DNA from: Candidatus Multivoradales bacterium
Lineage (GTDB): Bacteria; Acidobacteriota; Thermoanaerobaculia; Multivoradales; JAHEKO01
Reading direction: 5' to 3'
Assembly (NCBI GenBank): GCA_965223155.1
Contig: CBDCVR010000014.1
Coordinates: 352,001-416,000 of the forward strand
DNA length: 64,000 nt
Position numbers and translations under genes: made by a program. Below the pieces are notes generated by a model. It made no database searches and was not told the DNA's origin. It saw only the letters and a program-made list of their open reading frames with translations. This document shows, piece by piece, positions 3,414 to 21,920 of the stretch (position 1 is the stretch's first letter; each line of letters begins with the position of its first letter).

Positions 3414-3850
3414 ACCAGACCGAACGACGCCTTTGCCCGAACGAGCCGCCCATCGCCTCCAAGGTCCTGGACGGCGAGGCCATCTTGATCAACCTCGACA
3501 CTGGGGCGTACTACAGCCTCACCGGCTCGGGCGCGGTCGTCTGGGAGGCCGTGACCGGCCACCGGACCCGAACCGAAATCCACGACCATGTCGCCGCCGC
3601 CTACGACCGGGAAGTCGAGGCCATCGCAGCCGACGTTGATGCCTTCCTGGACCGACTCGAGGGCGAAGAGCTCATCCGCCACTCGCCCGAGAACGCCCCC
3701 GTGGCTGCCGGAACGGAGCCAAGCGACGCCGGTGAGTACCGGGCGCCCGAGCTCGAGAAGTTCACCGACATGGAAGAGCTCCTCGCCCTCGATCCCCCCA
3801 CGCCGGGCGCTCTCGACAACTTGATGCGACAGCCGCTTGGCGACGACTAA
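3410..3850 (+). CDS. PqqD-family / RiPP recognition element protein with C-terminal leader-like tail
   Basis: DGEAILINLDTGAYYSLTGSGAVVWE...FLDRLEGEELI is a PqqD-type pattern; tail YRAPELEKFTDMEELLALDP. Confidence 0.85.
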   Translation: MNQTERRLCPNEPPIASKVLDGEAILINLDTGAYYSLTGSGAVVWEAVTGHRTRTEIHDHVAAAYDREVEAIAADVDAFLDRLEGEELIRHSPENAPVAAGTEPSDAGEYRAPELEKFTDMEELLALDPPTPGALDNLMRQPLGDD

Positions 3851-4880
3851 TCGAACCGATCCGGTCGCGGCGAGCTTCGAGGAAGCTGCGCGCCGGTTCG
3901 CGCTTGCCACCGAGGCGGAGCCGCCGACCGCCGCCGACTACGACCTCGCCGGACAGCACGTGGCGGTGCGGACGGTGGGCCACGAGCTGGGACGGGAGCT
4001 CGCCCAACCGCTCGGCCACCTGACCGCCCACCGCACAAAGACACCCGCGCTCGAGATCGACCTCTGGCTCGGCTCGGAAACCGGAATCGGCTGGCCGGAG
4101 CTCGCCGACGAGCTCGACCCCGCCGACCGGTTCCCGCTTCGCACCTCGGCCGACGATCGTTTCGTCGTGCACCGCCAGATCGAGACGGCCGTCTGGCTGG
4201 ACCGCCAGGAAGGCCGCATGGTGGGCGCCGTTCGCGATCTTGCGGGTAGATCTCTCTATGAGCGTGGCCGGCCCCTGGAAACGCCGCTCACGGTCTGGAT
4301 GCGCGACCAGAACGTTCAGGTCGCCCACGCCGCTTGCGTCGCCCTCGAAGGCCGCGGAGCCCTCCTCCTGGGAGCGAGCGGCTCCGGCAAATCGACCCTG
4401 GCCGCCCGCTGCCTGGCGGCGGGGTTCGAGTTTCTGAGCGACGACAAGGTCGCTCTCACCGGCGATGCCGCGACCGGATTCACCGGGCACAGCCTCAACA
4501 ACTCCCTCCATCTCTCGGCCGATTCGATCGACCTGGTGCCCGAGCTGGCGGCCAGCGCCGTAGCCCCAGCCACGAAGCTGGACGACAAGTTTCGGGTCCC
4601 TCTCGCGGAGAGCCGGTGGGCACGCCGGCTCCGCGCCCACGCCGCCATCACCGTCCTGGTGCTGCCGCGGCTCGAGGCCGCGCCTGCAACTGGACGGGCA
4701 AGCCCGCGCGAGGCTCTGCTCGCCCTGTCGCTCAGTACCCTGCTCTCGCTTCCGGTTCGGCGAGCGACCAGCCTCGACCGGCTGGCCGAAGCCGTCCGAG
4801 CCCTGCCGGCGCTTCATCTCGACGCCCGGGACGACGCCGCGCCCGAGCGGCTGCGCGAGATTCTGCGCAGCGGAGTCTAG
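3837..4880 (+). CDS. HPr kinase-related P-loop kinase
   Basis: HAACV...LLGASGSGKSTLA...FLSDD, typical of HprK-related kinases; overlaps the PqqD gene. Confidence 0.8.
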   Translation: MATTNRTDPVAASFEEAARRFALATEAEPPTAADYDLAGQHVAVRTVGHELGRELAQPLGHLTAHRTKTPALEIDLWLGSETGIGWPELADELDPADRFPLRTSADDRFVVHRQIETAVWLDRQEGRMVGAVRDLAGRSLYERGRPLETPLTVWMRDQNVQVAHAACVALEGRGALLLGASGSGKSTLAARCLAAGFEFLSDDKVALTGDAATGFTGHSLNNSLHLSADSIDLVPELAASAVAPATKLDDKFRVPLAESRWARRLRAHAAITVLVLPRLEAAPATGRASPREALLALSLSTLLSLPVRRATSLDRLAEAVRALPALHLDARDDAAPERLREILRSGV

Positions 4881-4908
4881 ACCCGAATCGCCCTCGATCG
4901 GACGGCGC

Positions 4909-6006
4909 TCAGGAGCCCGGCCCGCGTCCTAGGAGCCGGTTGCCGATCCGCCGGGCCGGGAAGGTCACCGCCGTCCACGGATAGCGCGCGGCGATCTTGA
5001 CCGCCGACCCCCACCACGGCCATCGCGAGAGGCCTTCGAGCCGGGCTGCGCGCAGGCCGCGGCGCACGAAAAAGTAGCGCCGATGCGGTCGGCGCCCGAG
5101 ATCCTCCACGAGTCCCGAGAACCAGGGCCTGCGAGGCGGCCGCCAGCCGGCCCATTCCGTCTCTTCCAGAAGACGAAAGAATTCCGGAGTGAAATCGTCC
5201 GGGCACTTGGGCATCCAGGGTTTCTCGACCCCGGCGAAATGGGCGACAGACGGCCTGGCAAGCGCCGCCTCGAACTCGTCGGCATCGAAGCAGGTCGAGC
5301 GGTGCGAGGGGATCTCCTGCACGTGGGTCATGCGATTCCAGACCAGAGGCAATGGCGTCCAGCGCCCGGCCAGTGCACAGTTGAGTCCCTGCTGGTCGGG
5401 CGACCAGAACTGCCGGCGGTAGCGAACCGCGAAGTCGATCGCCCGCCCGCAGACGTCCTCGGCGCGCCAGCGGTCTAGTGGAATCAACATGAGCCCCGAG
5501 TTGAAGACCGGCAGCGGCCGCGAAGCGTCGATCTCGGGAGGCACGAAGTGGTGGTGCAGATGATGCACCATCGTGTCCTGCACCGCCGCCACCAAACCGT
5601 CCGCAAAGTCCATCGACCACAGCGGCTCGAGGTCGGCCAGAACGATCATGTCCGCGTCCAGGAACAGGACCTTCGCCAGATCCCCTGGCAGCAAGCGATC
5701 CAGGACCAGGGGGACACAACTCGCCAGCGGAAACGAGTACTCGGCCAGGCCCAGGGCGGCCAGCCGCTCACGGTTCAGCCGATGCCAGACCACGGCAACG
5801 CCGTCGCCACGCCAGGAGCGCGTCAGCCGTTCCCGGGTCGCGGTCTCGAGTCCGGCGTCGATGGCATGAAACTCGAGCGGCCGCTTCGGGCCCCGATGCT
5901 CGATCACCGAAACGCCGAGCGCCGCCAGACCGATGGCGAAGCGCTCGTCGGCGCCCGCCACCACCACCATCGGCTCATTCGAGGAGCCGCTCGTCTCGCC
6001 GGTCAC
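4909..6006 (-). CDS. Glycosyltransferase family 8
   Basis: VVAGADERFAIGL, KVLFLDADMIV, FNSGLML, DQQGLN, HFAGVEKPW; GTG 6006 overlaps the sulfotransferase stop. Confidence 0.88.
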   Translation of the reverse strand: MTGETSGSSNEPMVVVAGADERFAIGLAALGVSVIEHRGPKRPLEFHAIDAGLETATRERLTRSWRGDGVAVVWHRLNRERLAALGLAEYSFPLASCVPLVLDRLLPGDLAKVLFLDADMIVLADLEPLWSMDFADGLVAAVQDTMVHHLHHHFVPPEIDASRPLPVFNSGLMLIPLDRWRAEDVCGRAIDFAVRYRRQFWSPDQQGLNCALAGRWTPLPLVWNRMTHVQEIPSHRSTCFDADEFEAALARPSVAHFAGVEKPWMPKCPDDFTPEFFRLLEETEWAGWRPPRRPWFSGLVEDLGRRPHRRYFFVRRGLRAARLEGLSRWPWWGSAVKIAARYPWTAVTFPARRIGNRLLGRGPGS

Positions 6007-6941
6007 GTCTCGAGCCAGTGCCCGAGGTCGCGGCCGGTGATCGCCTCGACCCGGCGAACGTCGTCCGCGAACCGATCGTTGAGCCGGCGCCGGGTCTCCG
6101 GGCGCATCGTAGGCGGCTTGACCCAATTGAGCCGTCGGTTGACTGCCATCGCCGCCTCCCAGAGACGGCGCGACGACCCTCCGGGCAGCAACCTCTTGAG
6201 CGCCGAGCGCGTCGGACTGGGAGTGGTCAGCCAGTTCTCGGCCGCGGGCAGCCGGGTGATGCGGGCCCGATTGTGGCGCTCGCCCACGTCCACTTCGAAA
6301 TCGTCCCGAACCCCGAGGAATCGAAAGAGCTCGACCAGAAACGACGCCGGATCTCGCGCGAGGTCTTCGAAGAAGAGAACCTTGAGGCGTGCGGGCTCGA
6401 ACAGGCGCAGATACCGCTCGAGCTGCTTCGCGTACAGCCCCTTCTGAACGTAGTGATACTGCTGACCCCAGTTCTCGGCAATCCGCCGCGGCTCGGCCGT
6501 CAAAGCCTCTTCGAAGCTCAAGGTCTCCTTGCCGCCTCTCAAGTTCATCAGATAGGCCGAGTAGGCGCGATCCGCCGGCTGGCGCAAGATCGCCACCAGC
6601 AGAGCCTCGCTGGCGTATCGCGCGATCTTCTCGGCCGCCCATTCGTCGTACAGGTACAACGTCGTCGCTTCACCGGCGACCTTCTCGTCGGTGCGTCCGG
6701 CGAAAAGCGCTCGGTACTGCTCGAAAGTGCGGATACCGTCCGGGCGCCTCGTGGCTTCCAGCGGTCCCCCCCATCGCTCCCGTCCATCCACGAGGGCGAA
6801 AAACGCCGGCTCCTTGCGGGGCGACATATACACCTCAGGGTGCTGGCGCAGGTAATGGTACACCGAGGTCGTGCCCGCTTTCATGGCACCCAGAATCAAG
6901 AAGTCGGGCATCGCCCCGGAGCCGCTCCGCACGGTGAGCAT
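6003..6941 (-). CDS. Sulfotransferase
   Basis: PDFLILGAMKAGTTS (5'-PSB), KEPAFF, LRQPADRAYS (3'-PB). Confidence 0.92.
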   Translation of the reverse strand: MLTVRSGSGAMPDFLILGAMKAGTTSVYHYLRQHPEVYMSPRKEPAFFALVDGRERWGGPLEATRRPDGIRTFEQYRALFAGRTDEKVAGEATTLYLYDEWAAEKIARYASEALLVAILRQPADRAYSAYLMNLRGGKETLSFEEALTAEPRRIAENWGQQYHYVQKGLYAKQLERYLRLFEPARLKVLFFEDLARDPASFLVELFRFLGVRDDFEVDVGERHNRARITRLPAAENWLTTPSPTRSALKRLLPGGSSRRLWEAAMAVNRRLNWVKPPTMRPETRRRLNDRFADDVRRVEAITGRDLGHWLET

Positions 6942-7005
6942 AATACTCCGCAGGCTCCGGCGCCTCGGCCCTTGCTATCCTGGCCTCGGGAGGACACCGC
7001 ATTCG

Positions 7006-7725
7006 ATGCGAAATCTAGGTCTGGTCGGTCTGGCTCTTCTTCTCGCTCTGTCTTCGTTCGCCCCGGCGGCCGAGGCGGCGCGGATCCCCGATTGCCTCGA
7101 CAATCCCGGCGTACCCGATCGGCTGGGTTTCACGCACCGAGTACCGATTCGCATTGGCGGCACATTCTGGTACTTCGCGGATCCGGGACTCCAGCTCTCC
7201 TCGACGCCGGACAACGTCGGCCAGCCGCAGGACATCCCCGGTCACTGCTGGTCGGTCTCGGCCCCGCTGGGCCGGTATCCACGCTTCTTCGGGCACCACT
7301 ACAACACCGGTCCGCTGGGAGCCGGGGCGCCCGGCCGGTTCTGGTCCAGCAATGCCCCGGATCACTCCCTGCTCTTTCTGGTCGACATCATCATCTCGCG
7401 CTGGACGCCCAAGCTCGCCCTCGAGCGCTTCAATGACGGCTACGTCCACTACCACGAGCTGGTGCGCGAGGGCGACGGCTGCGTCCATCCCCGACTCGTG
7501 GCCTGGTTCAAGCACACGGCCATCGAGAGCTTCTCGTTCGACGGCGGACCACCGCCGGTACTCCCGGACGGCACGTACTTCCGGCCGCGCAACGTCCCGT
7601 TCAAAGCCCGACCCGGTGTCGCCCACGGCTTCATGGTCAACTACGACGTGCCCTACAAGCCGCAGCAGCAGCGCATCGGCCGCGAAGCGTTTCCGGTCGA
7701 AGTCTGCAAGCTGAGCCGCAAGTAG
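7006..7725 (+). CDS. Secreted hypothetical protein (His-rich GHHYNTGP / GYVHYHEL motifs)
   Basis: Signal peptide MRNLGLVGLALLLALSSFAPAAEA; host-like codon usage; stop lies ~10 bp before a REP-like arm. Confidence 0.75.
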   Translation: MRNLGLVGLALLLALSSFAPAAEAARIPDCLDNPGVPDRLGFTHRVPIRIGGTFWYFADPGLQLSSTPDNVGQPQDIPGHCWSVSAPLGRYPRFFGHHYNTGPLGAGAPGRFWSSNAPDHSLLFLVDIIISRWTPKLALERFNDGYVHYHELVREGDGCVHPRLVAWFKHTAIESFSFDGGPPPVLPDGTYFRPRNVPFKARPGVAHGFMVNYDVPYKPQQQRIGREAFPVEVCKLSRK

Positions 7726-7837
7726 GCATCGTCGAATTCGGTGACAGATGAGATGAGTCGGTCGGTCTCCAGCTGGGACACTGTGCCAGTTGGAGATAAC
7801 CAAGAATCGGCATCAGAGCCGAGAAAGGAGACCGACC

Positions 7838-8851
7838 ATGGAGTATCTTGGCATCGATGTTCACTCGAAGTACAGCGAGGTGTGTGGCGTATCAGAAGAC
7901 GGTGAGGTGACGGTTCGCCGGCGGGTTCCGACGACCGAGACGGGCCTGCGAAGGTTCTTCGCCAATCGGGAACGCTCGCAGGTGACGCTCGAGAGCGGTC
8001 CGGTCACACCCTGGGTCTATCGACTGCTGTCTGAGCTCGGCCATGAGGTGATGGTGGTCAATCCACGCCGGGTACGTCTGATCGCGGAATCGACCCTGAA
8101 GACGGACGGAATCGACGCCGAGATCCTGGCTCGTTTGAGCCGGTTGGATCTGGGTTTGCTTCGACCAGTCTACCAGCGCACAGGTGAGGCCCAAGAGCTT
8201 CGGACGCGTCTTCGGGTCCGAACGAGTCTGGTGAAGACCAGGACCTCGCTGATCAACTCCGTACGCGGAACGCTGCGGGCACAGGGCTACCGAGTGCCCT
8301 CATGTCCGGCGAAGAGCTTCGTGGCTCGGTACGCGTCGATGTCGGTCGAAGCCGGCCTGTTGGGAGCGCTCGAACCTCTGGTAACGACAATCGGCGAGCT
8401 GACCGATCGGATCCACCATCTCGAAGACGACCTCATCTCCGAGTCGAGATCAAACGAGCTGGTCCGTCGGCTGCAGACGGTTCCTGGTGTGGGGCCTCTG
8501 GTGAGCCTTGCGTTCGTCGGCTGGATGGATCGTCCGGATCGGTTCGAGAAAAGCCGCGACGTCGGAGCGTGTCTGGGCTTGAGACCGTCGCTTCGCAGCT
8601 CAGGAGGGCATGAGGTCAGGGGCCGGATCACTCGCGAGGGCGACTCGGAGATGCGCAGACTCTTGGTGCAGGCAGCTCATGCGGCGTTGAACTGTCGCAA
8701 AGAGTCGTCACTCAAGAGATGGGCTGAGGGCCTGGTCGAGAGGCTGGGTAAGGGCAAGGCCGTGGTCGCGCTAGCTAGGAAGATCGCGGTGTTGCTCCAC
8801 AGGCTGTGGGTGACAGGTGAGAGCTTCCGAGCCTTTCCCAAGGCAGCGTAG
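7838..8851 (+). CDS. IS110-family DEDD recombinase/transposase
   Basis: MEYLGIDVHSK, LESG, KTDGIDAEILA, TVPGVG, GLRPSLRSSG (catalytic Ser region), VALARK; RBS AAAGGAG. Confidence 0.96.
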   Translation: MEYLGIDVHSKYSEVCGVSEDGEVTVRRRVPTTETGLRRFFANRERSQVTLESGPVTPWVYRLLSELGHEVMVVNPRRVRLIAESTLKTDGIDAEILARLSRLDLGLLRPVYQRTGEAQELRTRLRVRTSLVKTRTSLINSVRGTLRAQGYRVPSCPAKSFVARYASMSVEAGLLGALEPLVTTIGELTDRIHHLEDDLISESRSNELVRRLQTVPGVGPLVSLAFVGWMDRPDRFEKSRDVGACLGLRPSLRSSGGHEVRGRITREGDSEMRRLLVQAAHAALNCRKESSLKRWAEGLVERLGKGKAVVALARKIAVLLHRLWVTGESFRAFPKAA

Positions 8852-9090
8852 AAGAGATAACTAGACGACCAACAAGCAAGGACGGATTGAGAGGTTCGAT
8901 GACTCCGAAAGTATCCTTGGTGGCCCCGACACCGTGTGACAGATGGGAGCATCGATTCCTAAACGGACGCAAAACTCACCATGCACCGGTTCAAAGAAGA
9001 ACCCTACAGAGTGCGAATAGAAGCTCGTCCCAAGCCTCGATCCAAACCTAAGGAAAACTACAAAAAGAAGAAACGAAACTCTTGACGCCA
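8852..9090 (+). ncRNA. Putative bridge RNA / seekRNA of the IS1111 element
   Basis: Target loop with AGTATCCT (8910-8917) and GTGACAG (8936-8942) matching the two halves of the insertion site; donor loop in a GGACG...CGTCC stem with ATAGAAG (9017-9023) matching the right end plus core. Boundaries approximate. Confidence 0.8.
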
Positions 9091-9254
9091 ACCGACCGAC
9101 TCATAGAAGGATACATATTTCGGGACTGTCCCTCTGCGGCCGGACCCTTCCCTTGAAACGAGTATCCTGTCACCGAATCCGAATTCACCGAATCCGAATT
9201 CTGTCACCGAATCCGACACCGAATCCGGATTTAGTGAGATGATGGCCGGGCAGC

Positions 9255-11267
9255 GTGCACATCAAGCGTCGATTCAGGGGCGCCGCCGTTACGGCGGCCA
9301 TCTGGACCGCGGTGGTGACCCCGGACCCCGCGGCGGCCCAGCCGGCGGTCGTCCGTGTCACGGTCACCCAGGTCACGGCCCTTGACTGCCTCGATCCGGC
9401 GGGTCTGTCGTGCGCCGGCGCCGACTTCTACGCCAAGCTGAGCGTCGACGGCGAGACGGTCCAGACACCGCACATCGATGATGCGACCTCGATCTCGCCG
9501 AACTGGACGCTGGAGCGGTCCGTGGCCCGCAATCCGGTGCCCGTCCAGATCGAGATCTGGGAGTCCGACAGCTGGTTTCGCGACGGCGACGACCCGGTGG
9601 ACCTCAAGTCAGCCCCGGGCCGGAGCCTCAATCTCTCGGTCGATACCCAGGCCGGCAGAATCTCGGGCAACCTCACCGGCAAGACCAACACCCTCCTGAC
9701 TTCGGCCGGAACCCAATCCGGCCGGGCCCGAATCACCTTCCGCATCGACGTCGTGACCCGTCCCAGGCTGGGAGAGCTCGCGATTACCGTGGAGCGCTTG
9801 ACCACCCTCGAGACGGTGGACGACGGCGTCACCGGACGCCAAGGCCGGGCCGACTACTACGTCCGGGTAGCCATCGACGGCATCGTCACCAGCAACCGCG
9901 ACGACCCGACCACCTCCGTCTACTACGACCACGACGAGCTGGCTCCGTACTGGACCTTCAAGCGAATCGTTAATTTGAACCGTCGCTCGATTCCGTTCGC
10001 CCTCGAGCTAATGGATGCCGACAACAACGCTGACGACCGGGTCGACATCCAGCCCGGCCTAGGCCGGGTCCTGCACATGACGGTGACGCCGAGCACCTGC
10101 CGGATCCAAGGCGACGTCACCGGCCGTTGCGCCGGTCCGTTTGACGCCAGGGGGCGGATCGTGGCCTCCGGCGAACAGGACGACCGCGCACGCATCCAGG
10201 TCCGCGTCGAGCTGCGCCGGCCGCCGCCCTTCGCATTGCGCTGCCTACACTCGCCACTCTGGCCGCGTCCCGGACAAACGGTCTCGATCCGGGCCGAGGC
10301 CCTCGACAGCCAGCTCGACCCGGTGGTCGCGGACGGCATTCAAATCGGCGTCGCGGGCACCGGCAGGATCCACTCCTGCGACAACGCTGGGGCCTGCACT
10401 CTCAACGTCATGATGCCGGCGGGCGCGACACGGTTTGACTACATCTGCCAGGCGCAGCGCTTCCGCAGGACGGTCACGACCGGCCTACGCCAGGTAGCCG
10501 TCGGGGCCAGGCCCGGCGAGCGAGCCGTCCCGATCTTGAGACATCAACCCTCAGCCAAGGCCCTCGACCTCGTGTTCCTGGCCGATCTCGACACCTTCTC
10601 GACCGCGTCCGAGACCGCCTATCTCGGCGCGGTCGAATTCTTGATCCGCTCCGGTCTCTTTCGGAATCCTCCGTTGGTCCTCAACCAACAACGTCTCAAC
10701 CTGTGGATCGCCAAGGACCTGGCCGATGCCAACGGTTTCGTGCCGGGAAGCACGGTGCGCTGCAGCCAGCCGCCGTCGAACTGGACCACCGCTTACGGCT
10801 TCGCGGACTCGGGCATCGTCGTGCACCAAGAAGCGATTCGGGACTGCGCCGACTTCGCCACGGTCGGGCCTCAGGGCCAGATCTTGCGCCCGATGGTGAG
10901 CACTCCGGCCAACTCTCCCGGCGTTCTGCTACACGAGCTGGGGCACATGCCCTTCGGCCTGGCCGACGAATACTGCTGTGACGGCGGCTACTTTCAAACC
11001 GGATTCGCCCCTAACGTCTACGCCTCGGCCGACGCGACCCAGTCGAGCACGGCCTGCCGGGCCGATCCTCTTGCTGCTCTCCTGGGCGCCTGCGGCGCCT
11101 TCACCGAGAACCGCCCACCGAGCCGGCGGCGGGTGTTTCGCCTCGATCACCCTCCAGGAAGCCGGTTCGACTTCCGTGACGTCTCGAACGACCTGATGGT
11201 GGACGACGGCACCCTCCGGCCCGCCGACGTTCGACGATTTCAACACGTGTTCCGAAGCCTTCCGTGA
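9255..11267 (+). CDS. Secreted multidomain zinc metallopeptidase (two C2-like beta repeats + M64-like HExxH domain)
   Basis: Signal-like N-terminus; repeated ADFY/ADYY...W...IEIWESD/LELMDAD...DD.VD modules; HELGHMPFGLADEY. Confidence 0.75.
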   Translation: MHIKRRFRGAAVTAAIWTAVVTPDPAAAQPAVVRVTVTQVTALDCLDPAGLSCAGADFYAKLSVDGETVQTPHIDDATSISPNWTLERSVARNPVPVQIEIWESDSWFRDGDDPVDLKSAPGRSLNLSVDTQAGRISGNLTGKTNTLLTSAGTQSGRARITFRIDVVTRPRLGELAITVERLTTLETVDDGVTGRQGRADYYVRVAIDGIVTSNRDDPTTSVYYDHDELAPYWTFKRIVNLNRRSIPFALELMDADNNADDRVDIQPGLGRVLHMTVTPSTCRIQGDVTGRCAGPFDARGRIVASGEQDDRARIQVRVELRRPPPFALRCLHSPLWPRPGQTVSIRAEALDSQLDPVVADGIQIGVAGTGRIHSCDNAGACTLNVMMPAGATRFDYICQAQRFRRTVTTGLRQVAVGARPGERAVPILRHQPSAKALDLVFLADLDTFSTASETAYLGAVEFLIRSGLFRNPPLVLNQQRLNLWIAKDLADANGFVPGSTVRCSQPPSNWTTAYGFADSGIVVHQEAIRDCADFATVGPQGQILRPMVSTPANSPGVLLHELGHMPFGLADEYCCDGGYFQTGFAPNVYASADATQSSTACRADPLAALLGACGAFTENRPPSRRRVFRLDHPPGSRFDFRDVSNDLMVDDGTLRPADVRRFQHVFRSLP

Positions 11268-11917
11268 CGACTCGCATGCTCGACTACATCAGCCTTTCGA
11301 AGCTGCCCGATCCAACCGGGCTTCTCGGCACGTTCGTGCTGGCTGTCGCCGTCGCGCTGGCCGGCTGTGCCGTCGAGGAATCGGCCGAGCTGGGAACCGC
11401 CGCGACCCGGACCGAGCTCGTCCAACCGACGGTAGCGATCGAAGCGGTCGAGACCGCCCCGGCGGTGCCTCCGGCCGCAACCGTCGAAGCCGACCCTCCC
11501 GACGCCAAGGTCATCGCCGTGGACTTGACCGCCAGCGGCACCGGCGACGACTTCGACGTCGAGCTGTCAAACGTTCGCATCCTCCCTGGGGTCGCGCCCA
11601 ACACCGTCGGCAATCCCCCGCTTCTCGACATCGAGCTCCGGGATTCCGAGGGCGAGAGCCTGTCGCGCTTCTTCGCGTGGGATCCACGCTGGACCTTCGT
11701 CTGGGACGCCGACCACCGCGGGGAAGAGCTCGTGGTCCGGCAAGAAGCGACGGTGCCGGTACTCTTCCCGTTTCGGCCCGACCTCGCCGAGATGCTCGTC
11801 TTCACGGAACAGCAGGGACGCCGGCACCTCGCCTCGATCGACCTCGCACCCACGATCCTCGATTTCTGCGCGGTCAATCCGGGAGATCCGGACTGCGCCG
11901 CGGTACGCGTGCCCTAG
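11264..11917 (+). CDS. Lipoprotein, probable partner of the upstream peptidase
   Basis: Lipobox VALAGC; GTGA overlap with the peptidase stop. Confidence 0.7.
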   Translation: MTTRMLDYISLSKLPDPTGLLGTFVLAVAVALAGCAVEESAELGTAATRTELVQPTVAIEAVETAPAVPPAATVEADPPDAKVIAVDLTASGTGDDFDVELSNVRILPGVAPNTVGNPPLLDIELRDSEGESLSRFFAWDPRWTFVWDADHRGEELVVRQEATVPVLFPFRPDLAEMLVFTEQQGRRHLASIDLAPTILDFCAVNPGDPDCAAVRVP

Positions 11918-11929
11918 GAATCCGCCCCT

Positions 11930-11980
11930 AGCCAGGCAGTCTGGCGGTCGAAACGGGGAAGATGCCGTCCACCGAATCCC
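11930..11980. repeat. Degenerate REP-like arm
   Basis: GAAACG...GTCCACCGAATCC resembles GAAACGAGTATCCTGTCACCGAATCC (9155-9180); ends 2 bp from the ATPase stop. Confidence 0.55.
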
Positions 11981-11981
11981 C

Positions 11982-13130
11982 CTAGAGATCGCGTACCAAT
12001 CGCGCGGCTGCGACAGCTCGCACCTTCTTGGACAGGGCAAACGTCTCTTGGCCCGCGTGGATCACGTTCAGCTCATGGAGGTCGAGCGACTCCAGCGCCG
12101 CTCTCATCGATGCCGTGACCCTAGGACTCGATGTCCGCTTGAACTCGAATCCGATCCGGCGGCGGCCAATCCGAGCGAAGAAATCGAGCTCCGCGCCGGT
12201 GTGTGTAGCCCAGAAATGGACCTGGTCATCCGCGAGGCCAAGCTCGCCGATCACCTGTTCGAGCAGAAATCCTTCCCAGGAAGCTCCCACTTTGGGGTGC
12301 GACTCCAAATCCTCGTGCGCGTCGATTCGAAGAAGCGAATGCAGCAATCCACTGTCGCGCAGATAGACCCTCGGAGACCGGACCTGGCGCTTCGAGGTAT
12401 TTGCAAACCACGGCGTTGCTTGCCTGACCACGAGTGCCGACGTCAGAAGATCCAAGTAGCGACGGACCGTGACATCCGAAACTCCGAACGAACGCCCGAA
12501 TTCGGATCCATTCCAAGTCTGGCCATGCCAGTGTGCCAGCATCGTCCAGAACCGCCGGAGCGTGGTCGCCGCAATCCGAATCCCTAGCTGCGGCAAATCT
12601 CGCTCCAAGAAGGTTCGCACGAAGCTCTCCCGCCAGGTTCGGCTATCCCGGAGCGACCGAGCCAGGAAAGACCGAGGGAAGCCTCCGCGCAGCCAGAGCT
12701 TCTGAAGGGATCCCTCCCCTACCTCGGACAGCAAGAAGCCAGGCAGGTTGTAGTAGGAAATCCGACCCGCCAGGGTTTCGGACGACTGTCGCAACAGCTC
12801 GGGCGAAGCGCTTCCGAGCACTAGAAAGCGAGCTCTTGTCGGTCTTCGGTCGGCCAGGACACGAAGTACCGGAAAGAGATCCGGCCTGCGCTGAACCTCG
12901 TCGAGCACAACGAGGCCCTGGAGGTCACTGAGCGCCAAGTGGGGATCGTCAAGACGCGCAAGATCCGGAGGGTTTTCCAAATCGAAATGATGGCACGGCT
13001 TCGTTTGAGAGCGCGCGATCTGCTGACTCAGAGTCGTCTTACCGACCTGGCGGGCTCCCAGGATGGCAACCACGGGGAACGTCCGAAGCCGATCCAAGAT
13101 TGTCTTGACATGATGAGACCGCTCGATCAC
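11982..13130 (-). CDS. AAA_14 ATPase with DUF4143 domain
   Basis: GARQVGKTT, VLDEVQ, LGSAS, ETLAGR, RGGFP, DSGLLH, ASWEGF, ELDF...FEFK. Confidence 0.92.
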   Translation of the reverse strand: MIERSHHVKTILDRLRTFPVVAILGARQVGKTTLSQQIARSQTKPCHHFDLENPPDLARLDDPHLALSDLQGLVVLDEVQRRPDLFPVLRVLADRRPTRARFLVLGSASPELLRQSSETLAGRISYYNLPGFLLSEVGEGSLQKLWLRGGFPRSFLARSLRDSRTWRESFVRTFLERDLPQLGIRIAATTLRRFWTMLAHWHGQTWNGSEFGRSFGVSDVTVRRYLDLLTSALVVRQATPWFANTSKRQVRSPRVYLRDSGLLHSLLRIDAHEDLESHPKVGASWEGFLLEQVIGELGLADDQVHFWATHTGAELDFFARIGRRRIGFEFKRTSSPRVTASMRAALESLDLHELNVIHAGQETFALSKKVRAVAAARLVRDL

Positions 13131-13191
13131 CGGAGAACCTTACCACGAAATCTCGAAGGTAAGCGTCGAAATTTCAGGCAAGATTGCCGGC

Positions 13192-13260
13192 TGGCGGATG
13201 TTTATCCTCATCTCGCCAGGATCAGGCCTCGACGAAATGAATACCCTGTCACCGAGAATT
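13192..13260. repeat. REP-like hairpin (right arm conserved, left arm degenerate)
   Basis: GACGAAATGAATACCCTGTCACCG (13231-13254) matches the reverse complement of 14084-14107 at 20/24 positions; abuts the stop of 13260-13967. Confidence 0.75.
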
Positions 13261-13967
13261 CACGGGCCGGGGATACACGGTCGGCAGCGGCAGGTGAAGA
13301 AAAAGAAGAAGCACTTGCAGCATGCGAAGTCATCCGGATTGCCGCAGCTCACCTCGCAGCCGGAGAAGACCGAGCAGGTCACGCTACACGCGTTGGCGCC
13401 CTCGCCGCCGGCATCGCAGTCGTCACCGTTCACGCACTGCCCTGATGCCGGGTCGTGGTAGTCGTACCAGAACGACTCGGGCCAGGACTGGAGTTGGTCC
13501 CAAACGTGGTCGTGAACGCCGTGATCGATCCCGAAAAGCGGGCTGTTCGTCACCATCGCGAGCTCGAGTCCATTCGTCGCTCGAAAGACGAATGCTCCCG
13601 GAGGCGCCTGGCCTGGCCCTTCCCCGTTCCCGCTCCCGGAGGCGCCCTTCGGATTCCTGACCGTCAGCAGAACGACGAACCGCGCGTCGGGACCGACGAC
13701 CTTGAGCGACCTGTCCTTGACGGTCACGACGGCGTCGTCGACGTGCTCCCACCAGGTCGGCTCCAGACGATCCTCGCCGGTGAAGAGAAAAAACTCGTCG
13801 ACCTTGTCGTCGCTGTCGGCCGCGGAGTCCAAAGCAACAAGCACCCGCCCGAGCTCATCGACTCCAACCACGACGTCTCCAAACTCCACTCGCGCCGAGT
13901 CGCTCGATCCCAGCGCCGGACCGGCAATGAGACACGAGCACAGCACGATCAGCGAAGAACACCTCAT
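13260..13967 (-). CDS. Secreted protein with 12-Cys C-terminal domain
   Basis: Signal peptide; C-terminus CVNGDDCDAGGEGANACSVTCSVFSGCEVSCGNPDDFACCKCFFFFFTCRCRPC; RBS GGAGGAG. Confidence 0.8.
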   Translation of the reverse strand: MRCSSLIVLCSCLIAGPALGSSDSARVEFGDVVVGVDELGRVLVALDSAADSDDKVDEFFLFTGEDRLEPTWWEHVDDAVVTVKDRSLKVVGPDARFVVLLTVRNPKGASGSGNGEGPGQAPPGAFVFRATNGLELAMVTNSPLFGIDHGVHDHVWDQLQSWPESFWYDYHDPASGQCVNGDDCDAGGEGANACSVTCSVFSGCEVSCGNPDDFACCKCFFFFFTCRCRPCIPGP

Positions 13968-14083
13968 AGCTCCTCCGATCAGGGGCCGTCGGAAGCGAAT
14001 GCCCCTCTACTTATCTAATTTCCGTAGCGAGGGGTTTCCTGACAAGAAATTGCTGCTTCTTGAGCGGGGGAAAGCGGAGAAAG

Positions 14084-14107
14084 CGGTGACAGGATACTCA
14101 TTCCGCC
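14084..14107 (+). repeat. REP-like left arm upstream of the RAYT remnant
   Basis: CGGTGACAGGATACTCATTCCGCC, same core as the IS target site. Confidence 0.8.
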
Positions 14108-14123
14108 AGGTCGGAGCCCCGGT

Positions 14124-14261
14124 TTCCGTCTCGGTAGCATTGTTGTGCCCGGACTGGCACACCACGTCACTCAGCGGGGAGCGAGGCGAATGCAGGTCTT
14201 CTTCAGCCAAGACGACTACCGCATCTATGCCTCCATCTTGAGCCGACAGGCCCGTCGATAA
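14124..14261 (+). pseudogene. Remnant of REP-associated tyrosine transposase (RAYT, Y1 HUH family), N-terminus only
   Basis: Frame from 14127 reads RLGSIVVPGLAHHVTQRGARRMQVFFSQDDYRIYASILSRQARR*, matching the RAYT N-terminal pattern (R...PG.PHHVTQRG.RR...FF...DY..Y). Start codon lost; no HUH motif follows. Confidence 0.8.
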
Positions 14262-14334
14262 GGCACCTGGGCCCAGGGAGGGGGAATTCTCTTCTTGCCA
14301 ATGCCCTCCTCCCAGTGCCGAGTGCAGCGAGGCT

Positions 14335-14379
14335 TGGTGGGCCGTGAGGGAATCGAACCCCCGACCATCAGATTAAAAG
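14335..14379 (-). repeat. att site: 45-bp duplication of the tRNA-Lys 3' half
   Basis: TGGTGGGCCGTGAGGGAATCGAACCCCCGACCATCAGATTAAAAG is identical to 32663-32707. Confidence 0.97.
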
Positions 14380-14504
14380 AAAGCCCCAGAGCAAAAGACG
14401 TCAACGCCCTCCAACTCTCGGCGGCTCCAAACCACTGTGGGTACTGAGGAAAGCCCGGATCACAGTTCTTGACCTCTGTTGAGATCTCTGTCCGGAGTTG
14501 CGGC

Positions 14505-14527
14505 CAACTGCACCAGGAGTGCACCAT
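14505..14527 (+). promoter_or_regulatory. Putative integrase arm-type binding site (paired with 32571-32593)
   Basis: CAACTGCACCAGGAGTGCACCAT vs CAACTGTACCACGAGTGCACCAT, 21/23 identical, each ~70-130 bp inside an att site. Confidence 0.65.
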
Positions 14528-16001
14528 GGGAAGGTCTACTGCGAGCCCGACCATGCCGACTGCAAGCGAGAGATACCTGGATCGGCTCTGCCGGCACTCC
14601 TTTCTGAGTCTCTGGAGCTGGCCTCATCTCTACAGGGACCAGACCTGGGGCTCATCAGAGGGCAAGGAACTCTCTGACCTCCTTGTGGTGTTTGACCCGC
14701 ACGTTCTCATCTTCTCGGACAAGTACTGTGAATTCCCGACTGGTCCGGATGTCGCCCTGAACTGGGTTCGCTGGTACAAGAGAGCCATTCTGAAGTCGGC
14801 AAAGCAAGTCTGGGGAGCTGAACGGTGGATCACGAAGCACCCCACGCGTATCTTCCTCGACCCTGCGTGCACCGAGCCCTTCCCGCTCCCCTTGCCTGAA
14901 GATCCGGTTTTCCACCGGATTGTGGTAGCCCACGGTTCAGCTGAGGCCTGCAGGGAGTTTTTCGGATCAACACCCAGCCTCATGCTGAATAATCGGGTCC
15001 AAGGGAGTGCCCATACAGACACGGCTACCCCGCTGTTTAGGCCCTTCACCGTGGGTGACATCGACCCTTCCAAGGGCCTCGTCCACGTTATGGACGACGT
15101 CAATCTAGACTTCCTGATGAGGCACCTAGACACGGCCACAGACCTCGTCAGATATCTAGCGAAGAAGGAAGATGTACTCCGTGGTACCCAGGCGATCTCA
15201 GCAGCAGGCGAGGAAGAGCTTCTCGCGTGGTACCTGTCTCGGATGAACACAGAGGGTCGCCATGACTTCAACATACCGAAGGACCCAACCTTTATCGCCA
15301 TCGATGTCGGCTTCTGGGCGGACTATGCAAAGAACCCTGACACCCTAGCTCGCGCTAAGGCGAATACGATCAGCTACGCCTGGGACAAGCTAATCGAGAA
15401 GTTCACCACGTCACGGCTGACTACCATCACGTCCCTTGCAGATCGAGAGGCGGCTCTTCGGTTCATGGCGCGAGAGCACCGAGTACGCCGAAGGATGCTC
15501 GCCAAGGCACTGATCGGCATACTCCGGCGAGGAGACAGTCTCTACCGCGCGGCACGTGTCGTTGCTCCCGATGAGCCGGACCAACCTCACTACATCTTTC
15601 TCTGTCTCCCGTTCGACGCTGACGAGTTTGCCGACTACAGCGAGTACGTGAAGCTTCGCGAGGAGCTACTTGGCATTTACTGCCAGGTAGTACGACTCCA
15701 GTATCCACAGGTAACAGATGTGGTTGGGATCGCAACCGAGCCCTTCAGTGCGGACAAGAGAAGTGAGACCCTCGCGTACTTCGATGGCCGGGCATGGTCA
15801 AAGGAACTTGAGGAGGAAACCCGCGACCTTCAGGCCAAATGCAACATCCTGTTGGAGACGAAAGAGCTTCGAGGGACTGAGTACGAGTATCCCAGAGCTC
15901 ATATCAAGGCGATGAAGAAAGGGAGGAACCGCAACAGACCATGCCATTGCGGCAGCGGTCTCAAGTACAAGAGGTGTTGCGGCAGAACGATCACCAGATA
16001 G
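14526..16001 (+). CDS. NERD-like PD-(D/E)xK nuclease with C-terminal SEC-C motif
   Basis: KELSDLLVVFDPHVLIFSDK...KSAKQVWGAERW; C-terminal RNRPCHCGSGLKYKRCCG. Start may be 14553. Confidence 0.8.
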   Translation: MGRSTASPTMPTASERYLDRLCRHSFLSLWSWPHLYRDQTWGSSEGKELSDLLVVFDPHVLIFSDKYCEFPTGPDVALNWVRWYKRAILKSAKQVWGAERWITKHPTRIFLDPACTEPFPLPLPEDPVFHRIVVAHGSAEACREFFGSTPSLMLNNRVQGSAHTDTATPLFRPFTVGDIDPSKGLVHVMDDVNLDFLMRHLDTATDLVRYLAKKEDVLRGTQAISAAGEEELLAWYLSRMNTEGRHDFNIPKDPTFIAIDVGFWADYAKNPDTLARAKANTISYAWDKLIEKFTTSRLTTITSLADREAALRFMAREHRVRRRMLAKALIGILRRGDSLYRAARVVAPDEPDQPHYIFLCLPFDADEFADYSEYVKLREELLGIYCQVVRLQYPQVTDVVGIATEPFSADKRSETLAYFDGRAWSKELEEETRDLQAKCNILLETKELRGTEYEYPRAHIKAMKKGRNRNRPCHCGSGLKYKRCCGRTITR

Positions 16002-16039
16002 TCTGAAGCTCAGAGCTGCCCTTCTTCATACCTTGTCGT

Positions 16040-16212
16040 CTCTATAGTTATTTATATTTATCTATACTTAATAGAGAGCTGCAAAAAGTGCGCGGCTTGG
16101 CCGCAAGACCTGCAGCCTTGGCCCTGCAAACTTTGCAGGGGCACTGCATCCAGTAAGTCGACTTATCCCCACTTCCCTGCCACGGTGCAGGCACCCTGCA
16201 AAAACTGCAGGG
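16040..16212. repeat. AT-rich tract plus iteron-like CTGCA-N-TGCAG repeats (putative origin)
   Basis: Copies at about 16079, 16101, 16124, 16177 and 16196; AT tract TCTATAGTTATTTATATTTATCTATACTTAATAG. Confidence 0.6.
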
Positions 16213-16229
16213 CTTTCGTCCTTCAGCCT

Positions 16230-16649
16230 CTAGTGGAGTCGTCGTCGGCAAAGCTCGACAGCTCTGTCCCACTTCGCGGTGGTCCGGAGCAGGTCTTGAC
16301 GAGCTTCATTGTGCTCAACAAGCTCGAGATTCTTGAGGGTCTTCAAGCTGTTAAAGACGGTTCTCTCCGAGACTCGAGTGAGTCTCGCCAAAGTCGGCTT
16401 CGACGCGTTACACCATCCTGGTACCGGTCCGTGGTTTCCGGACAGCTTCTCTATCGCGTCGGCCAGCAGGTAATCGGTATGCTTCAGGTCGAACTCTTCG
16501 AGGACTGGCCAGAACACCATCGTGTAAAGAGGGCCCCAGCTTGGCGGCTTGGTCCTCCTCTTCTTCTCGCGCATCTCGACCGCCTCAGCGAGGCGAGCCG
16601 TGGATGCGGCAAGCTGGTTCTTGAACTCTTTGTACGAATCGTCCCCCAT
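16230..16649 (-). CDS. Winged-helix protein resembling the N-terminus of a replication initiator
   Basis: GWCNASKPTLARLTRVSERTVFNSLKTLKNLELVE (HTH_36-like); start reassigned to ATG 16649. Confidence 0.7.
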   Translation of the reverse strand: MGDDSYKEFKNQLAASTARLAEAVEMREKKRRTKPPSWGPLYTMVFWPVLEEFDLKHTDYLLADAIEKLSGNHGPVPGWCNASKPTLARLTRVSERTVFNSLKTLKNLELVEHNEARQDLLRTTAKWDRAVELCRRRLH

Positions 16650-16762
16650 ACCTTGGTTGCTTATACCTACAGAGTGCCCGGAGGACGCCCGGGCGTCAAG
16701 CGTGGAATGTGTGGACTGTGCGCTTGCAAGCAAGCCGTTTCCCCGGTCACTCGAGCTCGGCA

Positions 16763-17716
16763 CTAGTCGTCCGCCGGCTCCCGCTCGAGCATTGACCTGT
16801 ACTTGGCTCTCACCAGATCAAAGAACCTGCCGTCCTTTTCCCAGCTCTTCACAACCCATTCTACGAACGCGTCGTTGTACTGAGGAGCTGCCGTCGCAAA
16901 CGGTTGGTAGCAGAACTCCGGGTGCTTGCTCCACAGCTGAAAGACGTTCTTCAGACACTTCATATCGTGACTGTTGATCCTGTATCGCTCACCGAGTCGC
17001 TTGTTGACCAACTCAATCACATCCTTAGATCGATGTGGAAATTCCCTATCACCGTCGGTGAGTCTCACGGGTGCCGCCTTGGGGTCGGTTACCAGCCGGA
17101 CACGGGCATCACCAGGACCACCTTCAGTCAGTCCCGGCTTGAAGACCTTCACCACGCTTCCGGCAGGTGCATCCGTAACCTTCTTGATATCCCCGAGCCA
17201 GGCTTGTCTTTGACGGTTTACTTCTCGCTCAACGACTTTTCTGAGATCGCTTTCGTTACCAGGTTGGCTCTTCGCACCATGGCGAAAGTAGACAGTGCCC
17301 TCCTGAAAGGCGACCTTCTCCTTGCCTGCTTCGTTCCGATACGTGCCTGGTTTCTCAAACACCATAGGCATCGAGGCCGCTCCGACAACAAGTGTCGTCT
17401 TCTTGGTCCGTCCCCTGATGACAGACAGGAGCTCGAAGTCCGAGAACTGCCGTCCGGTGTAACGAGCGAGCTTGTCCGTGATCTTCGCTGGGTCGTACTC
17501 ACGAAGAGCCTCATCGTCAAAACGAGTCGCTCGTCCATTGTTCTTGACGCCAAAAACAATAACTCCGCCTCCGGAGTTCGCCATCGCCACGATGTCCTTC
17601 ACGACCTCGCACCACTCTCCCCTGGATTCAACATCGAAAGCCTCCTTGAAGTCCAAGTACTTGGACTCTCGTTTGGCGACCCTCGCACGATGAATCAGCT
17701 TCCCCTTGTCCATCAT
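16763..17716 (-). CDS. AlbA_2 / Schlafen-like domain protein
   Basis: RESKYLDFKE...KDIVAMANSGGGVIVFGV...YFRHGAKS; start at MMDKGK. Confidence 0.85.
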   Translation of the reverse strand: MMDKGKLIHRARVAKRESKYLDFKEAFDVESRGEWCEVVKDIVAMANSGGGVIVFGVKNNGRATRFDDEALREYDPAKITDKLARYTGRQFSDFELLSVIRGRTKKTTLVVGAASMPMVFEKPGTYRNEAGKEKVAFQEGTVYFRHGAKSQPGNESDLRKVVEREVNRQRQAWLGDIKKVTDAPAGSVVKVFKPGLTEGGPGDARVRLVTDPKAAPVRLTDGDREFPHRSKDVIELVNKRLGERYRINSHDMKCLKNVFQLWSKHPEFCYQPFATAAPQYNDAFVEWVVKSWEKDGRFFDLVRAKYRSMLEREPADD

Positions 17717-17808
17717 CTCAATTGTAGACCCGGCACGATGTTGTGCAGCTTGACCGCTATCAACACCCGGGCTCTTGCCAACCTCGCAGCACCGCGTACG
17801 ATGAAGGC

Positions 17809-18477
17809 ATGGATCCCAGCAGATCGACAGAAGAAGAGACCCCGCGGAAGAGAGGCTCCGAAGAGGACGGTCCAAGACCGTCCAAAGCGGAACCAGGCGG
17901 CACAGGACGGACTGGATCCGTATTAGACGGAACAGCTCCGCTTCATGCGGAATCGAACCGCACCGTTCCGCAGGGAACGGAAGCCCAGGCTTCAGAGCTA
18001 CCCTGGGAGCGGGAAGAGCTCTACACTACGACCATCCGCGAGGCAGTCAAGCTCTTTGAGGCTGCAGGCGTGCCCCGAGCTGAACGAACGCTGGTCAAGT
18101 GGTGTTCCCGGGACGCGACAGGAATTGGCCGACTCGACTGCCAGTATGACTCCAACGACCGGAAGTACTACATCACGGAGGAGAGCATCAGCCGCGTCAT
18201 CGCTGAGGAGCAGCAGAAAGCGAACCGCAAACCAGCTGTAGAGCAGACGGTGGACAGCGAGAAAGGGGCCGCGCCAGTCGAACTACCGCACACGAAGGAA
18301 GTGAGGGAATTGGAACTCAAGCTCCGCGACCTAGAGATCTCAAACCGCGCCAAGGACCACGTCATCGACCGGTACGAAAAGGAAAGGGAGGCTATGCTGA
18401 ACCAGTTGACGGCGGCGAGTCAGAAAGTTGGATCTCTAGAGACGGAGTTGAGGAGGTTGGAGGAGCCTACAGAGTAG
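17809..18477 (+). CDS. Hypothetical HTH-like + coiled-coil protein
   Basis: TIREAVKLFEAAGVPRAERTLVKWC...GRLDC...KYYITEESI, then a coiled coil. Confidence 0.65.
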   Translation: MDPSRSTEEETPRKRGSEEDGPRPSKAEPGGTGRTGSVLDGTAPLHAESNRTVPQGTEAQASELPWEREELYTTTIREAVKLFEAAGVPRAERTLVKWCSRDATGIGRLDCQYDSNDRKYYITEESISRVIAEEQQKANRKPAVEQTVDSEKGAAPVELPHTKEVRELELKLRDLEISNRAKDHVIDRYEKEREAMLNQLTAASQKVGSLETELRRLEEPTE

Positions 18478-18548
18478 GCTAGAGGCGACGGTCCCTCGGC
18501 GATCCTCAGCTGAGGATCCCCTCGTAGGGACGAAGAAGGTTCGACGAG

Positions 18549-18785
18549 ATGAAACGGCAGGCGGTCAGCTCTTCCAGCATCGCTTCAGTTGGCTACGACG
18601 AGAGCTCAAACACTCTCGAAATCGGCTTCCAGAATGGCCGAGTCTATCTGTACCTTCAGGTGCCAGGGATTGAGTTTGAAGGCTTGATGGCGGCGCACTC
18701 GAAGGGGCGATACTTCAATTCCAGAATTGCGGGCCGCTTCGACTACCGACAGATTCGAGGACCGCATGAACGAGAGTTCAATTGA
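18549..18785 (+). CDS. KTSC domain protein
   Basis: VSSSSIASVGYD...LEIGF.NG..Y.Y..VP...F..LM.A.SKGRYFN. Confidence 0.92.
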   Translation: MKRQAVSSSSIASVGYDESSNTLEIGFQNGRVYLYLQVPGIEFEGLMAAHSKGRYFNSRIAGRFDYRQIRGPHEREFN

Positions 18786-18809
18786 CAGGCTTCTTCGAGA
18801 GGGTATTCT
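18782..18809 (+). promoter_or_regulatory. Sigma70-like promoter for the R-M operon (probably leaderless)
   Basis: TTGACA-16 bp-TATTCT, with ATG 18817 seven nt after the -10 box and no RBS. Confidence 0.55.
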
Positions 18810-18816
18810 GACTAGC

Positions 18817-21668: not shown

Positions 21669-21692
21669 AAGTTATCTGGAGGGAAGCCAAGA

Positions 21693-21920
21693 ATGGGAGT
21701 CTATTGGGTCAATGAACACTGCCCAAAGTGTGGTGATTTCAACAAGATGAAGGGGATGGACATCCAAGACCTATGGGATCCCCACCCCGACGCTTACGAC
21801 CTGAAGTACCACGGAAGAACATACCGAGAACTGGGAATCTCCGGTCGGGGCAAGTGGAATACTTACCATTGTGAGAAGTGTGGTCACGTGTGGGCGAAAC
21901 TGAGGAAGCGCTACGAATAG
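21693..21920 (+). CDS. Small Zn-ribbon protein
   Basis: CPKC...CEKCGHVW; plausible RBS (GGAGG). Confidence 0.6.
   Translation: MGVYWVNEHCPKCGDFNKMKGMDIQDLWDPHPDAYDLKYHGRTYRELGISGRGKWNTYHCEKCGHVWAKLRKRYE

Follow-up and report, generated by a model that had tools for sequence, protein, structure and literature searches.

Within a 64,000-nucleotide stretch of the genome of a Candidatus Multivoradales bacterium (hereafter the window; positions 352001-416000 of contig C14 of assembly G000, which comprises 4.0 Mb in 15 contigs with a GC content of ~66-67%), positions 7006 to 14261 carry short repeat arms at the junctions of unrelated genes. The original prediction, made from the sequence of the window, had taken these arms as the bounds of gene cassettes captured by a REP-associated tyrosine transposase (RAYT), a Y1/HUH enzyme acting on repetitive extragenic palindromic (REP) sequences. 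Our analysis indicates that this region is very probably a piece of chromosome beside a tRNA-Lys site that holds a REP/REPIN cluster of a dead RAYT, whose repeats an insertion sequence (IS) of the IS1111 type has been colonising. Within the same explanation, and with the same high probability, the genes lying between arms are of an ordinary kind, each in single copy and in part accessory, and the arms are intergenic passengers and not capture sites. The evidence consists of a census of the repeats, the copies and flanks of the IS, the covariation of IS segments with their targets, the homology and truncation of a RAYT stub, the arms at the RAYT genes of relatives and a comparison with a second haplotype.

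The arms found at 7734 and 9162 are the two arms of one REPIN-like element that has been split by the IS, and are not cassette bounds. When the IS was removed in silico, positions 7740-7747 and 9110-9174 joined to form GGTGACAG-GATAC, a 47-bp spacer and the inverted arm GTATCCTGTCACC, an inverted-repeat (REPIN-like) element of ~70 bp, and uninterrupted elements of the same build were present at C13:301094-301164 and C13:303669-303739. The single element thus resembles two junction motifs because the insertion split it. The span 7734-9228, originally read as one run of the motif family at a junction, does consist of repeat sequence at its two ends, but contains an IS110/IS1111-family insertion that had gone unrecognised. 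The recombinase of this IS matched the NCBIfam model NF033542, 'IS110 family RNA-guided transposase', with 241 bits against a cut-off of 140. Inverted repeats of 14 bp lie subterminally at 7753-7766 and 9091-9104, and 258 bp of non-coding DNA follow the recombinase gene compared with 90 bp preceding it; the available text of PMC11187229 gives both properties, the subterminal position of the inverted repeats and the long non-coding stretch behind the gene, as features of IS1111 elements. The boundary is ambiguous by 2 bp, 'AG' being common to the flank and the IS end, and when these two bases were given to the left end, the terminal extensions became 7 bp and 3 bp, in agreement with the description in the same text.

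Fifteen copies of the IS with >99% identity were found in the assembly, 11 on the three large contigs and four on small contigs representing strain variants of regions found there. The left flank was GGTGACAG in all 15 copies, and the right flank was GATAC in 14 and GATGC in one. The close strain comparison was made with one co-assembled haplotype, contig C7, which is 98.9% identical over window positions 3657-14393; the arm at 14092 carries the IS in C7 and is empty in C14. Similarly, C14:574419 is an empty site, and its 94%-identical variant on C11 is occupied. Depth and joints were also surveyed in the assembled contigs of four public runs from one study and two samples, probably the source of the assembly, in which rare variants are dropped and only common forms are covered. 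In these, contig depth over the IS was ~60-105 compared with ~3-12 in most flanking bins (runs X1-X3), and the contigs of the four runs broke at the IS ends and at 14091/14092. The genome also has another IS1111-type variant, which shares 82% identity with that of the window and is inserted between GGT[G/T]CCAG and CCTTT at C13:297859-299225 and C15:372322-373688.

The 3′ non-coding region of the IS contains two short segments corresponding to the two halves of its target. The segment at 8910-8916 (AGTATCC) is complementary to the top-strand GGATACT of the right half-site, and that at 8936-8942 (GTGACAG), situated 3′ of the former, is identical to the top-strand left half-site. In IS1111 seekRNAs, according to the available text of Siddiquee et al. 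(2024, PMC11187229), a complement of the top strand precedes a match to the bottom strand, which is the order of the segments observed here. The strongest evidence for guidance was that both segments covary with the flanking target across four natural IS variants. The window element (ISa), inserted between GGTGACAG and GATAC, carries GTATCC as the first and GTGACAG as the second segment; the 82%-identical element of the same genome (ISb), inserted between GGTGCCAG and CCTTT, carries AAAAGG and GTGCCAG; that of G002 (ISd), between GGTGCCAG and CCACTT, carries AAGTGGG and GTGCCAG; and that of G004 (ISc), between GGTGACAG and GCTAC, carries GTAACC, with one mismatch, and GTGACAG. In addition, the hairpin between the segments showed a compensatory change from GGTG/CACC to GGAG/CTCC, and the minimum-free-energy fold placed the two segments on opposite sides of a single internal loop, which a conserved stem closes. 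A segment pair that covaries with its flanks appears to be the pattern expected of a seekRNA or bridge RNA, suggesting that the recombinase is guided by an RNA from the 3′ non-coding region; as the segments match both half-sites, the IS would insert precisely between GGTGACAG and GATAC. ISb would then be a case of natural retargeting within one genome, with the guide-like segments altered to match.

The repeat census supported most, though not all, of the arms originally proposed. A 17-mer search allowing up to 3 mismatches found three places in the 64-kb window, exactly at 9162-9178 and with 2 mismatches each at 9196-9212 and 14081-14097, compared with 0.06 expected, and none of 100 shuffles reached three. 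An arm profile was derived from all exact arms of the three large contigs that hold no IS, 16 in number; two of these arms belong to the window and match by construction. Over the window it detected arms or half-arms solely at 7734-7747 (E = 0.1) and 9108-9124 (E = 0.046), which are the halves of the split arm, at 9149-9180, at 9201-9214 (E = 0.14), at 13230-13255 on the minus strand (E = 0.041) and at 14079-14109, and outside 7.7-14.1 kb of the window it gave no score better than E = 3. The arm at 13230 was identical to that at 14085 at 19 of 22 aligned positions, a score equalled by none of 2000 random 40-mers. The recurrence of the motif at gene junctions above chance was therefore upheld by the motif and profile scans for four of the five places claimed. 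At the fifth, a 'degenerate' arm near 11970, the profile gave no match at E≤100, and 59% of random 40-mers aligned to the arm as well or better, which is chance level. Since there is no arm at ~11970, no arm separates the peptidase-lipoprotein gene pair from the ATPase gene. Of three stop codons said to lie hard against arms, those of the genes at 7006-7725 (7725, with the arm from 7734) and 13260-13967 (13260-13262, with the arm ending at 13257) are indeed close to one, and that of the ATPase gene has no arm beside it. Together with the 16 exact arms used for the profile, 11 that carry the IS bring the total on the three large contigs to 27; several form inverted pairs 33-79 bp apart and others are single, and no open reading frame (ORF) of at least 90 aa spans the repeat at any of the 16 arm loci examined.

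The RAYT remnant claimed just after the last arm was confirmed. A protein search with the 14127-14261 frame against longer subjects returned 22 matches, all of them PF01797 proteins of ~220 aa and up to 80% identical, although the 53-residue stub frame on its own matched nothing in Pfam (E≤10), NCBIfam (E≤1) or the PDB sequences (E≤10). Three full-length homologues matched NF047646, 'REP-associated tyrosine transposase', with E-values of 2.5e-21 to 8.5e-20 but bit scores slightly under the cut-off of that model. In the alignment with its homologues (A1), the stub includes the N-terminal block HHVTQRG but ends after ...QARR, ahead of NHVHL (HUH) and RYVLLNP (Tyr); it is a dead N-terminal remnant. 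A search of G000 found no intact RAYT copy, the sole other PF01797 gene being an IS200-type TnpA ~330 kb off on the same contig. The REP/RAYT system here is a relic, because the stub lacks the HUH and Tyr motifs and a start codon and the genome has no intact copy, so that the repeats constitute an orphaned population.

The arms could be tied to the transposase through relatives, where intact RAYT genes do occur. Among nine RAYT-homologue loci of relatives, GGTGACAG lay at most 160 bp upstream in four and a variant, GGGGACAG, upstream in three more, and an inverted CTGTCACC was present downstream in four of the nine. In G014, which belongs to a different genus, the exact 13-mer stands on both sides of an intact RAYT gene, with a paired element 1.6 kb away. 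Exact 13-mers numbered 18 in G014, nine in G002, five in G004 and two each in G001 and G003, and a reversed control pattern gave none in all five genomes; with 27 arms on the large contigs of G000, the family is a low-copy one. The window stub keeps the upstream arm only. Because the arms flank intact RAYT homologues in relatives, the original assignments of REP and RAYT are correct, and the arms, judged by their sequence and placement, are best described as REP-type repeats tied to a Y1/HUH transposase lineage. In some relatives (G015:C1:1486700-1490410, G008:C131), copies or fragments of the RAYT-like gene occur two or three side by side, unlike the usual single-copy RAYTs.

Classical REPs number in hundreds. 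The low copy number of the present family, the occupation of 11 of its 27 large-contig arms by the IS and the lack of an intact RAYT in G000 might suggest that the arms are unrelated to RAYT, being the target or footprint of an IS1111-type or other mobile element beside a coincidental stub. This is very unlikely, as in other genera the same arm stands upstream of intact RAYT homologues and, inverted, downstream of them; the arm variants track the host, the RAYT-side arm of G004 being GGTGACAGGCTAC and the IS variant of that genome lying between GGTGACAG and GCTAC; and the empty sites show that the arm is not an IS footprint. In the history that we prefer, a RAYT lineage would earlier have spread the REP arms, singly or as inverted pairs ~33-79 bp apart; the RAYT at 14127-14261 would then have decayed to a stub, leaving arms that are presumably no longer mobile today; and the IS1111-type element, probably guided by the RNA of its 3′ non-coding region, would have colonised the repeat family, splitting the element 7734-7747/9110-9174 and, in the co-assembled strain, also taking the 14085 arm.

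The interpretation of the genes as cassettes, captured singly as REP-bounded units by the RAYT before its decay in an integron-like, HUH-driven platform, draws on several features of the locus: the arms occupy intergenic junctions close to stop codons and cluster by the RAYT stub, the intervening genes have no functional relation to one another and in some cases a lower GC content, and the peptidase-lipoprotein pair recurs in many unrelated metagenome contexts. We nevertheless consider it extremely improbable. One of its arm 'pairs' is the single split element and another of its arms is at chance level, as described above. The orientations are mixed, running + (7740), - (9162), - (13230) and + (14085) along the window. 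A RAYT gene or REPIN is bounded by a plus and then a minus arm, and the Cys-rich gene by a minus and then a plus arm, an outward arrangement relative to the former; the two arms around this gene, originally described as inward-facing and identical at 20 of 24 positions, aligned with 19 of 22 identical. No paralogue of the genes between the arms was found elsewhere in G000, and the four-gene block has no second copy in the assembly.

The distribution of the arms likewise spoke against capture. They are spread over all three large contigs, by housekeeping-type as well as mobile genes. Twenty flanking ORFs of arms were scanned, of which 18 had a Pfam match and two had none; the neighbours include an O6-methylguanine methyltransferase gene 13 bp from an arm, an NAD-dependent DNA ligase gene 878 bp away, and genes for an ATP-binding cassette transporter, a glucose/sorbosone dehydrogenase, an extracytoplasmic function sigma factor, a low-molecular-weight phosphatase, a nucleoside transporter, Mutator-family transposases, RHS proteins and a beta-lactamase-fold protein. 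RHS-repeat proteins are encoded by a cluster of diverged tandem repeats (84-92% identical) at C15:953000-982000, which includes two IS1111-type copies and a REP pair and of which the small contigs C2 and C9 are variants. Arms scattered over the genome beside core genes, with no gain or loss of genes at them, had been named by the original prediction as the pattern that would speak against it, and this is what was found as far as it could be tested.

Variation of gene content between strains with breakpoints at the arms, which the cassette interpretation anticipates, was absent from the one haplotype available. Compared with window 3657-14393, C7 has the same genes, and the true differences are that its 14092 arm holds an additional IS and that another sequence follows the 45-bp tRNA-Lys repeat; the strain-to-strain change in gene content here maps to the tRNA-Lys attachment (att) site and not to any REP arm. 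A search for circular or empty-site reads had also been proposed, and no arm-to-arm joint was seen in the contigs of the four runs of one study, in which rare forms are invisible. The contigs did show two joints, 7545>11496 and 10333>11122, but with low support (sides of 21 and 20 letters) and away from any arm, and these were treated as unreliable. A DNA-level search of 12 relatives found no synteny, the matches being the 7006 gene, the ATPase, IS relatives and a tRNA fragment only, and in a translated comparison with contigs of G001, G002, G003, G004, G007, G014 and G015 only the 7006 gene or the RAYT segment matched. The unpublished genome G005 contributed solely to the counts of that DNA-level search and of the search for RAYT copies in relatives, and none of the conclusions depends on it. 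Among 80 metagenome loci of the peptidase gene (L027-L106), the gene homologous to 11264-11917 follows that homologous to 9255-11267 in 33, none of which holds any other window gene; arm-like 9-mers occur in just seven of the 80, at inconsistent positions, and the closest of these peptidase relatives, with an identity of 45% at best, are too far removed for strains to be compared. A cassette array at this locus is unsupported and is contradicted in several particulars, though not exhaustively, and retains hardly any probability in our judgement. Such a system, if true, would be a new way for genes to be captured, but it finds no support in the evidence.

Gene movement could also be attributed to the IS, with two same-orientation IS1111-type copies at REP arms moving the DNA between them as an RNA-guided composite, for which the block 9110-14092 in C7 would be the candidate. 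C7 indeed has two same-orientation copies, at the 7747 and 14092 arms, around the four-gene block, and the REP-targeting ISPpu9 is described in the abstract of PMC12288879 as forming various circular intermediates, by which a 'modular transposition' becomes possible. However, the second copy in C7 is broken by a nested Mutator/IS256-family element of 1,372 bp (C7:11411-12782), the four-gene block is single in the assembly, and no circle-consistent joint occurred in the contigs of the four runs, which make such mobilisation highly improbable. The nested element was also found, with 99.9-100% identity, at C14:571680-573051, C13:299686-301056 and C15:374671-376045 and on C11. It is just as doubtful that the REP arms act as RNA-addressed landing pads, from which docked same-orientation pairs of IS1111-type elements, such as that around 9110-14092 in C7, would excise genes as a circle and re-insert them at any REP arm; if this were true, there would be a REP-addressed, recombinase-driven shuffling of genes that outlives the RAYT which made the arms.

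Several observations weigh against the explanation of the locus as a relic REP cluster colonised by an IS. The local density of arms is high, with four arm loci in 6.4 kb compared with 27 arms in 4 Mb, which the cassette model would also predict, though it is compatible with clustering near a RAYT gene. A fall of the GC content to 0.61 over 12-14 kb may point to acquisition of the ATPase and Cys-rich genes. In every relative examined, the genes beside the 7006 gene and beside the RAYT were non-syntenic, indicating that the gene content around the arms has changed over longer times, with breakpoints that were not located because the relatives are too diverged. Rare excision products would be missed with a single close haplotype and with assembled contigs, from which rare variants are lost. 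The scores of the full-length RAYT homologues lie just below the NF047646 cut-off (71-76 compared with 80 bits). As for the seekRNA, it is a candidate predicted from sequence: the whole 3′ non-coding region folds no more stably than its shuffles (z = -0.71), and a search of Rfam at E≤1 over 6500-15000 gave no RNA family, no curated bridge RNA or seekRNA model matching.

Features of the window at and around the repeat arms. Strand is relative to the window; HMM, hidden Markov model.
Feature	Position	Strand	Evidence
239-aa protein gene, signal-peptide-like N-terminus (by eye)	7006..7725	+	no Pfam/NCBIfam family
Left half of REP arm (GAATTC GGTGACAG), severed by the IS	7734..7747	+	profile scan, sequence
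IS1111-type (IS110 superfamily) insertion sequence, 1,362 bp	7748..9109	+	near-identical copies, flanks, recombinase HMMs
DEDD transposase/recombinase of the IS, 337 aa	7838..8851	+	PF01548 8.5e-25, PF02371 4.5e-21
IS 3′ non-coding region with candidate seekRNA/bridge RNA	8852..9109	+	segment-target covariation
Remainder of split element: GATAC, 47-bp spacer, inverted right arm GTATCCTGTCACC (9162-9174)	9110..9174		sequence, intact copies elsewhere
Short tandem partial copies of the outer part of the arm, including the 2-mismatch copy 9196-9212	9175..9228	-	motif and profile scans
Two-gene module: 9255-11267 (670 aa, HELGH motif by eye) and 11264-11917 (217 aa, lipoprotein-like N-terminus by eye)	9255..11917	+	ORFs, HMM scan
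AAA_14/DUF4143 ATPase gene, no REP arm at stop codon	11982..13130	-	PF13173 5.5e-24, PF13635 4e-39
Degenerate solo REP arm	13230..13255	-	profile, alignment to 14085 arm
Cys-rich 235-aa protein gene	13260..13967	-	no family match
Solo REP arm, core GGTGACAGGATAC at 14085-14097; placed and oriented like the arm upstream of intact RAYT genes; IS-occupied in haplotype C7	14079..14109	+	motif and profile scans
Pseudogene stub of RAYT (Y1/HUH), ~residues 3-46 of ~220, without start codon	14127..14261	+	protein homology
45-bp perfect copy of the tRNA-Lys(UUU) 3′ end, distal att repeat of integrative element	14335..14379	-	match to tRNA gene 32663-32738

The genes between the arms gave few family assignments. 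Homologues of the 7006 gene with 59-67% translated identity were found in three genomes of the same genus, with no shared neighbours. Neither product of the two-gene module has a Pfam family; the 670-aa protein gave a weak match to the M6-metalloprotease model TIGR03296 (E = 0.0067), far below the NCBIfam cut-off, and from its HELGH motif and the lipoprotein-like partner, the pair may represent an uncharacterised secreted metalloprotease with a partner or inhibitor. The Cys-rich protein had no relatives in a search of genome contigs.

Beyond the RAYT stub, a perfect 45-bp direct repeat occurs at 14335-14379 and 32663-32707, with ~18.3 kb between its copies, and the intact tRNA-Lys(UUU) gene at 32663-32738 forms the end of an element of ~18.3 kb whose GC content is 55-60% compared with 66-70% outside. 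It encodes a tyrosine integrase by the tRNA gene (31507-32550), two ATPases resembling type IV secretion system coupling proteins, a Replic_Relax protein, a primase zinc-ribbon protein, a DNA methylase and a Schlafen/AlbA_2 protein, and window 14335-32738 is an integrative and probably mobilisable element. The sole Pfam match of its first gene, 14469-16001 (510 aa), is a C-terminal SEC-C motif. In C7, the DNA following the 45-bp repeat (C7:13473-25326) is wholly different and ends in sequence ~65% identical to the integrase gene of the window; a different island thus occupies the same att site in the co-assembled strain.

The case joins an orphaned REP family, an IS1111-type element on 11 of its 27 arms and four variants whose guide segments track their targets. 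Such natural guide-target pairs could be useful for work on bridge RNA and seekRNA recombinases, and the covariation series and the extent of occupation are the most useful by-products of the analysis; the locus could also be useful for studying REPIN populations after the loss of their RAYT, and it warns annotators that an IS110-type insertion makes one repeat resemble two.

Integron arrays have one recombination site per cassette, a uniform orientation and a functional adjoining recombinase. The resemblance of the present locus is superficial, consisting of short imperfect palindromes between unrelated genes near a recombinase gene; unlike in integron arrays, there is no one-site-per-gene pattern, uniform orientation or intact recombinase, no content variation was seen at the sites in the one haplotype compared, and the sites are scattered genome-wide. 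REP/REPIN-RAYT systems were reportedly treated by Nunvar in 2010 and by Ton-Hoang in 2012. Similar to those described by Bertels & Rainey (2011, PMC3116915) and in the abstract of PMC3337134, the repeats here are short and intergenic, single or as spacer-separated inverted pairs; the cognate Y1/HUH transposase gene is flanked by inverted repeats in relatives; and the arm is common to related genera. In contrast to them, the family is of very low copy number (27 arms, and 2-18 exact 13-mers in relatives), the local RAYT is a stub of ~44 residues with no intact copy in the genome, and some relatives have several transposase copies or fragments where a RAYT is typically single-copy.

The IS finds its counterparts among the RNA-guided IS110 elements, such as those with the IS110/IS621 bridge RNAs considered in the available text of PMC11208160. 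Like the seekRNA-guided IS1111 elements, as far as they are presented in the available text of Siddiquee et al. (2024, PMC11187229), it has a DEDD recombinase, subterminal inverted repeats, a long downstream non-coding region and two short target-matching segments with the top-strand complement first, and appears to be retargeted between close relatives; unlike the characterised members, it comes from an uncultured lineage, and its putative RNA is predicted from the DNA sequence and has no Rfam family. IS110-family elements that target REPs, namely IS621, ISPa11, ISPpu9, ISPpu10 and ISRm19, are listed in passages of Tobes & Pareja (2006, PMC1525189), and the present element shares with them a fixed position within the REP, in all 15 copies here and in 6/6, 7/7, 7/7 and 4/4 copies in a table of that paper; it differs in its host lineage and REP sequence, in the occupation of 11 of 27 arms and in the death of the cognate RAYT. 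Every part of the locus belongs to a known kind: the REP/REPIN family is an orphaned one, the RAYT gene is a pseudogene, and the IS is a new seekRNA-type member of IS1111 that targets the REP of its host.

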